Source of the DNA: Lysobacterales bacterium
Lineage (GTDB): Bacteria; Pseudomonadota; Gammaproteobacteria; Xanthomonadales; SZUA-38
Direction of reading: 5' to 3'
DNA: 64,000 nucleotides
Assembly (NCBI GenBank): GCA_030065125.1
Contig: JASJDM010000012.1
Coordinates: 20,718-84,717, forward strand
Shown here: positions 32,390 through 44,300 of the stretch, piece after piece
How positions within the stretch are numbered: the stretch's first letter is position 1
Layout of the letters: each line of letters opens with the position of its first letter
Program-made: the position numbers and the translations under genes
The notes under the pieces: model-generated
What the model was told of the DNA's origin: nothing
Seen by the model: the letters and a program-made list of their open reading frames with translations, nothing else
Database searches by the model: none

Positions 32390-35300
32390 ATGCGTGACCT
32401 GGGCCCACGGAGAAACCGCTCTTCTCATCCGCGGAAATTCCTTCACGACTGTTTAATCTGCCTGACGGCTTTTGCCTTGCTGTCCCCAGCTTCGGGCTGG
32501 GCCCAGTCAGCGGACCTGGACGTCTCAATCGGCACCTGGCCGACCAGCTACACGCCGGGCGCCACCGCCACCAATGCGTATCAGTTCACCGTCGAGAACC
32601 TCGGGACCGACAACACCACCGGCGCCACGGTCACGGCGATTTTCGACGATCCGGCGGCGCTGGCGTCCATGACCTGGACCTGTTCTGCTGACAGCGGCAG
32701 CAGCTGCGGCAGTGCCTCGGGATCTGGAACCAGCATTAACACCACGGTGGATCTCGAAAATGGAGACACGGCCACCTTTACCCTGAGCCCGGTGTTCGAC
32801 GGTGACGCCACCGCCGATCCGCTGATGCTGACCGCAACTGCGGCAGTAACCGGAGGGGATACCGACCCGGTCGGTTCCAACAACAGTGCCTCGAGGACCA
32901 GCAGCCGATCCCCGGACCTGGACATCCGCGTGGTCAGTCTCACCGATGGCGCGTCGATCTACTATCCCGGCAGCAGCGCGACTTACACGTTCACCGTAGA
33001 CAGCAACGGCGGTCCGACCCACGTCGATAACGTGGGCGTCAGTCTGTCCATTCCGGCTGGAGCATCCCTGGATTCCTGGACCTGCACCGATGGCGCCGGG
33101 TCCAACTGCGACACGGCATCGGGTACAACTACTTTCACCGGCGTGACCGTAGACCTGGACGACGGCGCGTCAGTCAGCTTCAGCCTGAACGTCAATTACA
33201 GTATCTCGGCCACAGGCCCTCTGGCGCTGACGGCCACGGCGAGCACGCCGGCCGGCGACAGCAACACCGGCAACAACAGCGACACCGATTCCAACAATCC
33301 GGCCCAGGCCGAAGTGTCGGTCACTATCGATGACGGCGGCCCCAGCTACACGCCAGGTGCCTCCAGCACCTACACCATCACGGTCAGCAACGCCGGGCCC
33401 GACCCCACCAGCGGTGTCCAGGTTTTCAACGCGCTGCCCGTCGAAGTCACATCGGCGTCCTGGACCTGCAGCGCCGATCCCGGCAGCAGCTGCGCGGACG
33501 CCAGCGGCACAGGGTCCATTGATACCACCGTGGACCTGCAGAACGGCGATGCCGCAACCCTCACGGTCGTGGCAAATTTTGACTCCGGCGCCCTGGCCAA
33601 TCCACTGGAAAATTCGGCCAGCATCAACATCAATGACGGTGCGCTGAACGGGACTTCCGACGACAGCGACACCGACAGCAACGCCCTGGATCGCGTGGTC
33701 GGCCTGTCCATTACCAAGTCAACCGTGGCCTTGCCGCTGGTCCCCGGCCAGGCCCTGACCTACGACATCCTGGTGTCCAATGCCGGGCCCAGCGATCTTG
33801 GCGCCGGTCCCGGTGAGGCCGGCATTCTTCTCGCCGACGACCTGGACAGCGACTTTGTCGGCCATCCGGCCAATTGCACCAACCCTTCATTGCCCTGCTA
33901 TATCTACTGTTCCACGGAGAGCGCCATCGGTGACGGGAATATTTCTCCGACCAACTGCGGCGCCGAGTTGTCCGAAGAGACCGGCGATATCACGGATCTC
34001 TCCGTTCGATTGACCGCCGGATCCAGCTCCCTGATACAGGTTCAGGTGCAACTGGTGGGGTCCGCTTCCGGCGCTGAATGTGACGCCAGTAACGCGGGAT
34101 CCGATGAAATCTGCAATACCGCCGTGATGGTCCTGCAGGACACAGCGACCACCCGGGATACGTCCGGTTCGGTGGTATTCGATGACAGTGTGGTCAACAA
34201 CATCCAGGTGGGCACCGACCTGCTGCTGACCAAGACCGATGACGACTCCGCGGTGCCCGGGCTGGCTCACGAGTACACCGTGGTGGTACGCAACAATGGC
34301 GCGCTGGATGTATCTGGCGTCACGGTAACCGATATCCTGCCCATCGGTCCTACCGCGGGCTTTGTCAGCGGCAGCGTCAGCTGGACCTGCAGCGCTGACC
34401 CGGGCGCCTGCTGCCTGAGCGGTGGCCAGTGCGGGGTCAGCCAGCCCGTTGGCCCGTTCACTTTTGATCAGCTCGATGCGCTGGTGGATCTGGACGCCGC
34501 TACCGAGGTGACTTTTACCATCACCGGTACGCTGGACCCAAGGTTTTCCGGCATGCTCACCAATACCGCCAGCGGGTTGTTGCCCCCGGGGATCGACGAG
34601 TTGGATCCGGGCAACGATTCGGCCACCGATGTCACCACCGTTGTGCCGGTGGTGGATCTGGAGATCTCCAAGACGCTGGAGTCCCTGCTGGTCAACGAAA
34701 CCGACAACTCGGTATTCGACCTCCAGTACCGGATTGTCGTGAACAACCTGGGGCCGTCATTCGCAGACGGCGCTGCGGTTGCAGACCCCTTCAACGACAT
34801 TGGGTTCGACCCGGCAACCATCTCCTGGGTCTGCAGCATCAGCGGCAACCAGGGCAGCAGTGCCTGCAACGAAGGTGACCCCGGCCCGGTCGTTGGCGCC
34901 ATCGCCACCACCGTGGACCTGGATCCCGGTGCCAGTGCCATATTCCTCGCCAGCGTTTCGACCCGCCCCGCCACGACCGGAATCGTCAGCAACACGGCCA
35001 CCGCTGCCATTCCGGGAGACCTTGCGTCGGTAACGCTGGATACCAGCCTCAGCGCCACGGCTGACCTGGTGCTGACCAAGGATGATTCACGCACCACCGC
35101 CACACCGGGCGAAGAGCTGGTGTACACGCTGACCGTGAACAACTTCGGTCCGGATGACGTATTCGGGGCAACGGTAACGGACATCTTTCCGCCCGAGCTG
35201 ACTGATGTCAGCTGGACCTGCGACGCCACCACACCCATCCCGGGGGAGCTGAACTTCTTCGCCAACAGTGACCAGGGCGCGCCGGGCAATGCCATGGTGC

Positions 35301-41300: not shown

Positions 41301-44300
41301 GAGCGGTGGGAGTGACGCTCAGCATGGACGGTCGCCACCTGTACGTGGCCAGCGAAATCGACGATTCCGTGGCAGTACTGTCCCGGGATCTGTCCAGCGG
41401 CGAGCTGAGTTTCGTGGAGGTGGAAATTGACACCATCAACAGCGTCAACGGCCTGGGTGGCGCGCGGTTCGCCCGGGTCAGTCCGGATGATCGCCACGTT
41501 TACGTGGGTGGAACCCAGGATGACGCCATCGGCGTGTTCAGCAGGGATGCCGGGACCGGCGCCCTCAGCTGGATCAGCACGGTGAACCAGGGCCAGGACG
41601 GCAACGACGGTCTCAACGGCGTATACGACATGGTATTCGACGCCGACGGCAGTCATGCCTATGTGGTGGGTGACGCCAACGACGCGGTGGCGGTCTACAG
41701 CCGCGACGCCAGCACCGGAGCGCTCACCTTCCAGAGCGCGGTGCAGGATTTTCAGACCCTGGTCAACGCGCTGCAACAGCCCCGGGCGGTTGCACTGGCG
41801 GATGATCGCCAGCTGTTCGTGGCCAGCTTCGGCAGCGATGCTTTGGCAATTTTCGACGTGGACAGCGATACCGGCGATCTGACTTTCGACACGGCAGTGT
41901 TTCAGGGATCCGGCGGAATCACCCGGATGGCCGGGCCCGAGGGACTGGTGCTGGGTCTGGAAGGATCGGAACTGTATGTCGCCGGCAGCGTCAGCAATGC
42001 GGTGACCCTGTTCCGGCTGGGCGACGGCCTGCCGGAGCCCATCGCCAGCTACGACAGTGGCGCCATTGGCGAACTGGCTGGGGTAAACCGACTTAGCCGA
42101 AGCGCGGACGGCCGACATGTCTACAGCTTCGGCGATGCCGCCGCCGCCAGCGCAACGTTTGAGCGCAATGGTGGTTCCCGCTGCACCGGTTCGGGCACCG
42201 GTCAACTCAGCGACATGGCAGATATCGCGGCCGGAGGACAGGTGAGCTACACCATTTCCGGGCAGGTGCTGGCCGGCGCCAGGGGCCAGTTGATCAACAC
42301 CGCGACCGCGGTGGCGGGACCGCTGGTGACCGAACTGGATGCCGGCAGCAACACCGCCGTGGACAGCGACCCGCTGGTTCCCACCAGCGATCTGTCCATC
42401 GCCAAGTCCGACGGATTGACCCAGGTCGAAGCCGGCACTTCGCTGACTTACGATCTGGCCCTGTCCGCCGCCGGCCCCAGCCACGTGGATGTCACCGTCA
42501 CCGATCCGCTGCCGATTTTCCCCACCGCCACGGCAGGATTCCTGACCGGGTCGGTGGCATGGACCTGCGACACGGCCGAAGCCCTGCAATTCTTTGCCGA
42601 GTACGGCGACACAGGAAGCAACGGGCTGGCCGGTGCCAGCGACATCCTGGTCAGTCAGGACGGACTGTTCGTCTACGTGACATCGGCAATGGAAAACTCG
42701 GTCAGCGTGTTTGCCCGGGCCGGCAACGGCAGCCTGACGTTTGTTGCGCGTGTTGTCGAAGGTGATGAACTGAGCGGCGGAACGGTATCGGGTATTGAAG
42801 GCGCCAGCGGCATGGCACTGGATGGTGAAGGGACATTCCTCTACGTCACCGGTGAAACCGACGATTCCGTGGTGGTGTTCTCGCGAGACGCCGGCACTGG
42901 TCTGCTGGACTATGTCGAAACCCAGACCTCAGGCGTGACGCCGGTATTCGGCCTGCAGCAACCGCTGGCGGTCACCGTGACCCCCGACAACCAGTTCCTC
43001 TACGTTGCGGCTTCCGGCGGCAGCGGTGGCGCCATTACCGTGTTCCAGCGCGATCCCGCCAGCGGGCAGTTGACCTGGGTGGAGCGGGTCCGTGACGGAC
43101 TGGGCACTATCGTGCCGGAGAGCAACGTCATCAATGGTGTGGTTGACCTGTCGGTGTCTGTCGACGGCCGCTTCCTGTACGCGGCGGCCCGTGTCTCACA
43201 CGCCCTGAGCGTGTTTGAGCGGGATCCCACCAGCGGCGTACTGACGTTTGTCCAGGTCGTTCGCTCCGGTGATGTGCTGCCGGGCGGCACGGTGGAGGGC
43301 CTGGCGGGTATTCAGCGTATTGTGCTGAGCCCCAACGGAGATTTCCTGTACGGCGTTGGCAGCGACGATGACAGCCTGGTGCGGTTCATTCGCGCCCCGG
43401 GCGACGGCAGGCTGGACTTCGACGAGCGGCTCACCGCCAGCCCCGATCTGCCGCTTGATTCACCCAGCGCGCTCGCCCTGAACTCGGATGGGTCTCGACT
43501 GGCCGTAGTGGCGGCAGGCAGCAACGCCCTGCTGCTGTTCGACCGCTCCAGCAGCACGGGCACCACTGAACTGGCTGATGTGCTGATCAACGGCGACGAG
43601 GGCAGCAGCCGGCTGCAGTCGCCCCTGGCAGTCACGTTCAGTGCAGATGATGCTGATGCACTGGTGCTCACGACATCCGGTCTGGTGGCCGCTCATGTCA
43701 CCACGCCAGCCGATTGTGCGGCCATTGGGGGCACGGGTGACGTGGTGTCTGTTGACATCGAGGCGCCCGCGGGCAGCGGCGCGGCCATGACGGTTTCCGC
43801 GCTGGTGCACCCGTCGGCCCGGGGCATCATCAACAACGTAGCCGCGGTGTCATTCCCGCCCGGCTCGGCGGACCCGGTGCTGGCCAACAATGCCAGTCCT
43901 GACCAGACGCTTATCGTGGCCAATACAGACGTCAGCCTGACCAAGTCGGGTTCCGCGGAAGTCACTGCCGGTGAGGCCATCAGCTACACGCTGACTCTGC
44001 GCAATGCCGGTCCCAGTGACGCCCTGGGTGTAGAGCTGATCGATACATTTACGCCCAACGTCACCGACATCTCCTGGACCTGCGCGGCCGCTGGACGATC
44101 CACCTGTCCGGCCGTCTCGGGGACCGGGGACCTGGACGTGTTCTTCGATGTCGCCATCGATGGTGAGGTGGTATTTGAAGTCAGCGGGACCGTAGCCGAC
44201 TTCGTGGGCGGCACCCTGACCAACACGGCCACGGCCGTGGTGGAAGAGGCTGCCGTCAACACCGACCGCAACCTCGGCAACAACACCGCGTCGGCGGATA

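Follow-up and report, generated by a model that had tools for sequence, protein, structure and literature searches.

Results

The stretch of DNA analysed here (64,000 nucleotides, hereafter the window) covers positions 20,718 to 84,717 of contig JASJDM010000012.1 from the Lysobacterales bacterium assembly GCA_030065125.1 and carries a giant gene (32390..45562, forward strand) for a secreted protein of 4,390 amino acids (aa), in which 14 DUF11/CLIPPER units and six beta-propellers are arranged between a signal peptide and a 166-aa C-terminal domain. The whole feature is contained in the open reading frame 32327-45562 (+), whose sole ATG near the 5' end, at 32390, is the start codon and is preceded by the sequence AAAGGGGAA. 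The Sec-type signal peptide occupies roughly positions 32390-32506 on the forward strand (MRDLGPRRN...LLSPASGWA, followed by QS). With respect to its composition the protein is strongly acidic (9.5% Asp) and rich in Ala, Gly, Ser, Thr and Val, and Lys is very scarce, accounting for 20 of the 4,390 residues (0.5%), 11 of which stand at the strand-A position of DUF11.

Scanning against Pfam, as had been proposed in the first-pass annotation of this DNA, recovered both families in question in the intact protein as well as in its separate segments. For the intact protein, Lactonase (PF10282) was matched in 11 stretches (E 5.9e-143, 476.6 bits against a cut-off of 21.7) and DUF11 (PF01345) in 13 stretches (E 2e-128, 421.6 bits against a gathering cut-off of 24.6); furthermore, the DUF11-type repeat model TIGR01451 of NCBIfam was matched. 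A second, independent metagenome contig (JAAUYD010279067.1) carries the same gene with 99.49% identity over 12,622 bp and zero indels, the differences within the giant open reading frame amounting to 22 synonymous and 9 non-synonymous ones. An assembly artefact can thus be excluded, and the gene is real and under purifying selection.

Along the protein, six uninterrupted N-terminal units (U1-U6, 32510..35059) are followed by five consecutive split units in mid-protein and by three uninterrupted C-terminal units (43922..45061), all of them, like their inserts, encoded on the forward strand. The N-terminal half of host 1 (35060..35221), comprising strand A with its Lys and the Asp of a VTD motif, terminates in W-T-C; after insert 1 (35222..37588, 789 aa, 14 blades, read as two tandem seven-bladed propellers) the C-terminal half (37589..37795) opens at the second Cys and holds the Asn of the motif xNSAT. 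Host 2 (37796..37978 and 39149..39343) encloses a seven-bladed propeller of 390 aa (insert 2, 37979..39148) with a 1+3 velcro closure. Host 3 is interrupted at a second insertion site, between its strands A and B: strand A (39344..39379, ADLAVTKSDGL), which bears the Lys of the isopeptide triad (see below), stands alone in front of the seven-bladed insert 3 (39380..40558, 393 aa), and the rest of the domain (40559..40912) keeps its C-x7-C loop intact, with the two Cys codons at 40679-40681 and 40703-40705. Host 4 (40913..41074 and 42182..42385) encloses the seven-bladed insert 4 (41075..42181, 369 aa), and host 5 (42386..42568 and 43715..43921) the seven-bladed insert 5 (42569..43714, 382 aa), which consists of six clear blades and a degenerate, three-stranded seventh.

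The insert boundaries given in the first-pass annotation were all exact on the sequence. Four inserts, as it had claimed, lie precisely inside a Cys-Cys loop, beginning directly after W-[TA]-C and stopping directly before the next Cys, and the fifth, which it had assigned to a different site, follows directly on ADLAVTKSDGL. Its count of blades in multiples of seven was borne out with a hidden Markov model (HMM) derived from 14 well-defined blades of the window protein, which detected 14, 7 (plus one N-terminal partial blade), 7, 7 and 6 (plus one degenerate blade) in inserts 1 to 5, so that 42 blades (14+7+7+7+7) are inserted in total.

That the two flanks of each insert form one domain which resumes in register was likewise found when the inserts were deleted in silico. 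Each of the five joined hosts then gave one single PF01345 stretch from profile positions 1-2 to 109-112 of 114, with E values of 1e-15, 1.3e-13, 1.5e-16, 1.3e-14 and 1.7e-7 and 32-61 bits, all above the gathering score. Alignment of eight uninterrupted units with the split ones by MAFFT opened a long gap exactly between the two Cys residues and, for host 3, after strand A. A scan of genome contigs returned no close relative and uninterrupted DUF11 units only, one of which served as the insert-free comparator. In a Deinococcus metagenome-assembled genome (MAG), the uninterrupted unit NVTWACVASVGSTC aligns without a break to residues 1-61 and 425-490 of the split unit, which are the two halves of host 4. 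Insert-free and insert-bearing versions of such units do therefore both exist, as the Deinococcus unit and a sixth nested propeller in orthologues of the giant (see below) demonstrate. The nested topology, in which the two flanks complement each other to a single DUF11/CLIPPER domain, is well supported. A recent internal duplication of host-plus-insert units was also considered and rejected, the propellers being only 31-35% identical to one another and the host and uninterrupted units 25-50%.

All 42 blades fit one single consensus, ..VS.DG.HLYVAG..D.AV.VF.RD...G.LTF......G..GV.GL.G, and individual PF10282 scans of five insert segments (both halves of insert 1, insert 2, insert 3 and insert 4) gave 55.8-116 bits against the cut-off of 21.7. 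In the inserts of the Cys-Cys loop the last blade is three-stranded and receives its fourth strand from the first residues of the insert (P-x-P-G-x-L-x-F). By this 1+3 velcro closure both ends of the insert come to lie in the same blade, in agreement with the earlier suggestion that the termini of a propeller suit insertion into a loop. Insert 1 exhibits this arrangement twice, since each of its propellers possesses an N-terminal velcro strand of its own, namely GELNFF and, at the internal junction, PDPLFAFIE, whose P-D-P-L-F-A-F strand is kept in orthologues. Insert 1 would thus consist of two propellers, each closed on itself, on one common loop.

For the unit 40901-42394 (host 4 with insert 4), an AlphaFold2 (AF2) model based on an alignment of 36 sequences reached a mean predicted local distance difference test score (pLDDT) of 89.0 and a predicted template modelling score (pTM) of 0.81. 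The modelled insert contains exactly 28 strands, corresponding to seven four-stranded blades, and each host piece contributes four strands at a pLDDT of 65-90. Foldseek comparison of this model with the PDB placed seven-bladed propellers of the YbhE/6-phosphogluconolactonase type on top (template modelling score 0.68-0.76, normalised to the target, at 19-21% identity); the matches of the propeller also include the periplasmic gluconolactonase PpgL and 1L0Q. In analogy, the unit 39332-40921 (host 3 with insert 3) was modelled at a pLDDT of 89.2 and a pTM of 0.72, with 27 strands and an uncertain one in the insert. The junctions of this unit are poor, strand A reaching a pLDDT of 37-53 and the last ~20 residues of the insert staying below 50; the strand-A insertion site of host 3 therefore rests mainly on sequence evidence.

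The blades were also compared by their position. Among the six propellers of the window protein three weak blade-specific positions emerged (S, E and L), none of them catalytic-looking, and among 31-37 orthologues per propeller (33-40% identity) the columns conserved to at least 85% are made up exclusively of blade scaffold residues. Neither comparison contained a conserved active-site signature or a polar cluster outside the blade motif.

The distribution of Cys follows the nested layout closely. Two of the 38 Cys residues belong to the signal peptide, and the 36 of the mature protein form pairs or small clusters in the DUF11 units plus one pair in the C-terminal domain. The inserts contain no Cys in 2,323 residues, while the inserts of the Cys-Cys loop have a Cys exactly at both boundaries. 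Across the orthologue family described below, 146 of the 155 units split in the Cys-Cys loop are flanked by Cys on both sides, and 124 of these 146 inserts are free of Cys. The pair is present in 96% of the Cys-loop hosts, in 100% of the strand-A hosts and in 89% of the uninterrupted units, and because it is nearly universal it can be regarded as a constant feature of the insertion site. A disulfide between the two flanking Cys residues probably closes the insertion at its neck.

DUF11 was recently renamed CLIPPER and described as a CnaA-like immunoglobulin (Ig) domain with an Asp-catalysed Lys-Asn isopeptide bond between its first and penultimate strands, the triad of PDB entry 9IFR being Lys715, Asp748 and Asn806 (PMC12617251). 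According to the same work such domains are typically found as stalks in fibrillar adhesins, 58% of the CLIPPER-type domains in Pseudomonadota also have disulfides, and CnaA and CnaB folds tolerate the insertion of domains in their loops (PMC12617251). In the window protein the triad occurs in an all-or-none fashion: 10 of the 13 aligned units combine Lys, Asp and Asn, all five hosts among them, and the three C-terminal units have it in full. Since 9IFR was not retrieved by PDB sequence or profile searches with the host domain, the triad was mapped by spacing instead of by direct alignment; Lys and Asp are 32-38 residues apart and Lys and Asn 89-110, against 33 and 91 in 9IFR. In the split hosts the guest lies between the N-terminal piece with Lys and Asp and the C-terminal piece, which holds Asn, so that an isopeptide between Lys and Asn would join the two halves covalently. 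We infer such a bond from the position of these residues in the sequence. Across the family, the triad was counted in 107 of 155 Cys-loop hosts (69%), in 157 of 221 uninterrupted units (71%) and in 97% of the strand-A hosts. As it is no commoner in Cys-loop hosts than in uninterrupted units, the isopeptide appears to be common, yet not required for hosting a propeller. Units U1-U3 (32510-33700) lack the triad Lys and Asp, two of them also the Asn, and keep the C-x7-C loop; judging from these residues, cross-linking of the stalk probably does not begin before unit 4 or 5.

The family was defined by an exhaustive HMMER profile search in which a match had to span a whole split unit. Approximately 49 cluster representatives (clusters below 50% identity) carry such a stretch, most of them 4,300-5,200 aa in length; a further representative (P0121), outside these ~49, is the window protein itself with 4 residue differences. 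A provisional view of the architecture as nearly unique was consequently dropped. Exact look-ups of the giant and of its 755-aa neighbour returned no identical entry. Domain maps drawn with a DUF11 HMM and the blade HMM, both built here, unveiled the same order of the cassette throughout the family, that is, double propeller, single propeller, strand-A insertion, single and single, with 155 Cys-loop and 42 strand-A units in total. The break point in the family clusters at HMM positions 57-64, the loop Cys residues being located at 57 and 65, and 35 of the 42 strand-A units carry D-phi-x-phi-x-K before and DGLAEYDGL after the insert. The giants of the cultured Chiayiivirga flava (GCA_014202825.1) and Marinicella pacifica also carry the nested cassette, the locus of C. 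flava being JACHHP010000001.1:799865-821619. Members of the window protein's cluster (MDJ0653626.1, MBE5314891.1) are labelled 'beta-propeller fold lactonase family protein [Xanthomonadales bacterium]', and further cluster members derive from a MAG labelled Acidobacteriota and from a Leptolyngbya culture assembly.

For comparison, a word-index search, for which one split unit was the query, yielded nothing but stand-alone propellers of at most 870 aa and one protein with propeller and DUF11 in tandem (P0119). This search missed all of the ~49 giant clusters, and for repeat-rich proteins at 35-40% identity its negative result does not equal absence. Seven other giants of 2,250-7,345 aa (P0160, P0161, P0164, P0168, P0169, P0172 and P0177) contain 26-44 blades of the same type and no DUF11 detectable with the HMM used; these proteins may employ other host or linker domains for their multi-propeller arrays.

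The window protein is colinear with the orthologues P0123 (37.9% identity over 3,691 aa) and P0127 (41.8% over 3,991 aa). The sole large jump of the offset relative to P0123, about +440 residues, is located at U4 (33701-34201) and corresponds to a sixth nested propeller in the orthologue. U4 of the window protein is aberrant, PF01345 matching its first ~31 residues only, and weakly (E 0.005). Its loop region is occupied by a segment of ~100 aa with six Cys residues at the place where several orthologues (e.g. P0122-P0125) hold the sixth propeller. The comparison of the two versions indicates that in the course of evolution a guest was acquired, lost or exchanged in the loop of U4.

The C-terminal domain of 166 aa (45062..45559, +) opens with an IFRDGFE motif and contains one Cys pair. 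It gave no match in Pfam, and its homologues were found within the near-identical cluster only. The more general form of the motif, phi-F-x-D-G-F-E, also follows the last DUF11 unit in the orthologues P0127, P0133, P0137, P0145, P0162, P0190 and L008. Many orthologues terminate a few residues past it; the window protein and some orthologues continue with a fast-evolving tail of ~145-165 aa with Cys near the C terminus. The 755-aa neighbour in the operon terminates in the same motif as well; phi-F-x-D-G-F-E may be a sorting or processing signal.

Directly 3' of the giant gene, and kept there in orthologous loci, lies a gene for a PpiC/parvulin-type peptidyl-prolyl isomerase with an N-terminal membrane anchor (45516..46580), probably a dedicated folding helper. 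It is followed by genes for a secreted 584-aa protein without Pfam domain (46577..48331), for a second giant of 2,843 aa whose sole domain match is one SBBP beta-propeller repeat (48331..56862), and for a 755-aa protein (56865..59132), in which a Calx-beta domain precedes the same Lactonase-type propeller, the two being arranged in tandem and not nested. All four are encoded on the forward strand. The 584-aa protein is 50-55% identical in Marinicella species, Chiayiivirga flava and Wenzhouxiangellaceae. The operon is kept in the four other loci examined: all five genes are present in the loci of the isolates C. flava and M. pacifica (L007, L008), and the first four in two metagenomic loci (L005, L006), as far as the retrieved stretches extend. 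Taken together, the five genes look like an undescribed multi-protein extracellular system.

Further genes of the window encode a BLUF blue-light sensor shortly upstream of the giant (30585-31280, +), two Ser/Thr kinase-TPR proteins (1601-4456 and 18342-21143, both +) and a protein of 1,115 aa (27063-30410, -) in which CHB_HEX_C and MopE-type metal-binding motifs occur. TonB-dependent receptors and AcnB in the genomic context confirm a Gram-negative, Gammaproteobacteria-like genome.

Discussion

With respect to the function of the giant we favor, at a probability of roughly 0.6, a CLIPPER stalk in which a disulfide, and usually also an isopeptide, ties the split units that display binding propellers laterally. 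In such a molecule the DUF11 units would make up the stalk, and the split units would act as sockets that hold the six propellers sideways from its axis. In the Cys-loop units the propeller would enter and exit via the same blade owing to its 1+3 velcro closure, and a disulfide between the flanking Cys residues would tie the neck. The isopeptide would join the N- and C-terminal host pieces, so that tension along the stalk would be carried by the Lys-Asn link and spare the guest propeller. The propellers themselves would serve as binding modules, for multivalent adhesion or for binding to a matrix or to partners, and not as lactonases, because only their blade scaffold is conserved across orthologues. 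This adhesin or binding role is proposed by analogy. Several observations weigh against it. The giant contains neither RTX repeats (0 nonapeptide matches) nor a type I secretion system (T1SS) signal nor an LPXTG motif; the nearest relatives of its guests in sequence and structure are named lactonases; and the expected enrichment of the isopeptide triad among hosts had to be rejected family-wide, with 69% of Cys-loop hosts against 71% of uninterrupted units.

A quite different explanation would be that nothing is nested at all, the propellers and separate, half-sized or degenerate domains simply following one another along the chain, or the open reading frame being an assembly chimera. The only observation in its favor is that Pfam, applied to the intact protein, breaks DUF11 into pieces. 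We consider it close to negligible, since the insert-deleted hosts give single full-length PF01345 matches, the alignments place the gap in one loop, the AF2 model has a high pTM, the isopeptide triad is divided between the halves, an independent contig shows no indels and mostly synonymous differences, and the layout is kept in the ~49 divergent orthologue clusters and in isolate genomes. Enzymatic activity of the propellers, i.e. six copies of a lactonase or cycloisomerase on one stalk, which could for instance hydrolyse environmental lactones, is suggested by the PF10282 matches, by the 6-phosphogluconolactonases and the periplasmic PpgL as best PDB matches in sequence and fold, and by the name 'beta-propeller fold lactonase family protein' of the NCBI cluster. 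However, the identity to these enzymes is 19-21% only, and the 6-phosphogluconolactonase equivalog models of NCBIfam remain far under their cut-offs on the giant (153 against 500 and 144 against 370). One repeat consensus runs through all 42 blades, the three weak blade-specific positions do not look catalytic, and the strongly conserved columns of the orthologues are those of the scaffold, so that, as judged from the sequences, active enzymes appear improbable.

A purely structural role deserves more weight, though we hold it to be clearly less probable than the laterally displayed binding propellers. The giant could be a component of a matrix whose propellers act as protein-protein interaction modules and hold it together with the operon partners (the 2,843-aa protein, the 584-aa protein and the Calx-beta plus propeller protein) in a lattice, a sheath or an S-layer-like coat outside the cell. 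This would fit with the strict conservation of the five-gene operon, which encodes two further large secreted proteins, and with the position of the nested units in mid-protein, unlike the distal tip of RTX adhesins. Archaeal S-layer proteins, moreover, combine a propeller with Ig-like domains (1L0Q was among the matches), and DUF11 is found in archaeal S-layer porins (PMC12617251). On the other hand, the surfaces of the propellers are poorly conserved among orthologues, which would fit better to variable external ligands than to a constant partner from the neighbouring genes; the operon partners are 50-55% identical, against only 33-40% for the propellers.

The Cys pair that flanks the insertion, combined with the isopeptide triad divided across it, suggests the idea of a fibre that carries bulky modules shielded from load. 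In a wider, tentative view, which we consider less likely than not, the giant would be the leading member of a conserved and so far undescribed extracellular apparatus that five genes encode in Xanthomonadales, Marinicella and relatives, and in which the disulfide-tied and isopeptide-bridged CLIPPER domain has evolved into a general socket that holds propellers of 40-85 kDa in either of two loops free of tension. Should this be true, the socket CLIPPER would offer a natural domain-insertion scaffold for protein engineering and for the study of cell-surface fibre mechanics. The present labels of the conserved family, 'beta-propeller fold lactonase family protein' or 'TIGR01451 repeat protein', are probably misleading on function. 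Genetics and biochemistry are feasible, since cassette and operon are present in the cultured Chiayiivirga flava and in Marinicella species.

Among simpler relatives, stand-alone propellers of the lactonase family (about 400 and about 770 aa) are built from blades of the same repeat, the best local alignment reaching 43% identity. Those of 770 aa are double propellers similar to insert 1, but free-standing and not nested, and in P0119 the same two Pfam families occur with the propeller in tandem with intact DUF11. The insertion of a propeller into another domain has a precedent in the prolyl oligopeptidase family, in which, as reported by Fulop et al. in 1998, a seven-bladed propeller separates the N- and C-terminal segments of its host. 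Unlike the giant, prolyl oligopeptidase has an alpha/beta-hydrolase as host, a propeller that gates the active site, a single insertion and no stalk.

Closer in principle are the RTX adhesins, whose split domains project ligand-binding domains off the fibre axis, with insertion sites that include the one after the first strand and with up to six carbohydrate-binding modules (CBMs) in one Acinetobacter adhesin (PMC12077191; 10.1101/2025.09.30.679566). In MpIBP, FrhA and AhLap (Graham et al. 2024 Proteins 92:933) an Ig-like stalk domain is likewise interrupted by a complete guest with adjacent termini. The hosts of the giant are, however, DUF11/CLIPPER domains instead of BIg extenders, its guests are 40-kDa propellers and one pair of roughly 85 kDa instead of CBM, vWFA and peptide-binding domains, and its main insertion site is the Cys-Cys loop in the middle of the domain. 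In addition, the giant is Sec-exported without RTX repeats or T1SS signal, its split units are located in mid-protein and adjacent to one another, and its Pfam scan gave no HemolysinCabind, BIg or vWFA match. It works like the RTX split-domain adhesins, yet is not a member of them.

The same holds for the Gram-positive pilus tip adhesins RrgA, GBS104 (PDB 3TXA) and Spy0125, which contain CnaA- or CnaB-like isopeptide domains with inserted domains (PMC12617251). In GBS104 the split Ig domain comprises residues 137-211 and 587-717 with Lys188, Asp597 and Asn692 (PMC12617251), and in this type of adhesin the cross-linking Lys and Asn are found on opposite sides of the insertion, exactly as in the five hosts of the giant. 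Their guests, however, are vWFA or isopeptide domains, with one nested unit each and no flanking Cys pair, and they are anchored via sortase and LPXTG in Gram-positives, whereas the giant lacks LPXTG and stands in a Gram-negative context. In its mode of working the giant resembles RrgA and GBS104 with their split CnaA-like domains, yet it does not belong to their class.

Its hosts would rather count as bona fide CLIPPER domains, which pass the Pfam gathering score, have a similar triad spacing and contain a Cys pair of the kind common in Pseudomonadota. The published CLIPPER survey describes tandem uninterrupted stalks and mentions neither Lactonase or propeller partners nor split CLIPPER domains (PMC12617251). 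The word 'propeller' is absent from the papers on RTX split domains (PMC12077191; 10.1101/2025.09.30.679566), and we found no publication on propellers as guests of split domains, on Lactonase combined with CLIPPER or on the present giant family. The first-pass annotation knew of no description of the repeated domain-in-domain architecture. In general form, the principle of repeated insertion is already published (PMC12077191, PMC12617251); the pair of CLIPPER host and propeller guest and the giant family do appear undescribed. The 'split domain' rule is extended by the giant to a new host (CLIPPER/DUF11), to far larger guests, namely whole propellers and even a pair of them, and to a class of Sec-exported proteins outside the RTX adhesins.

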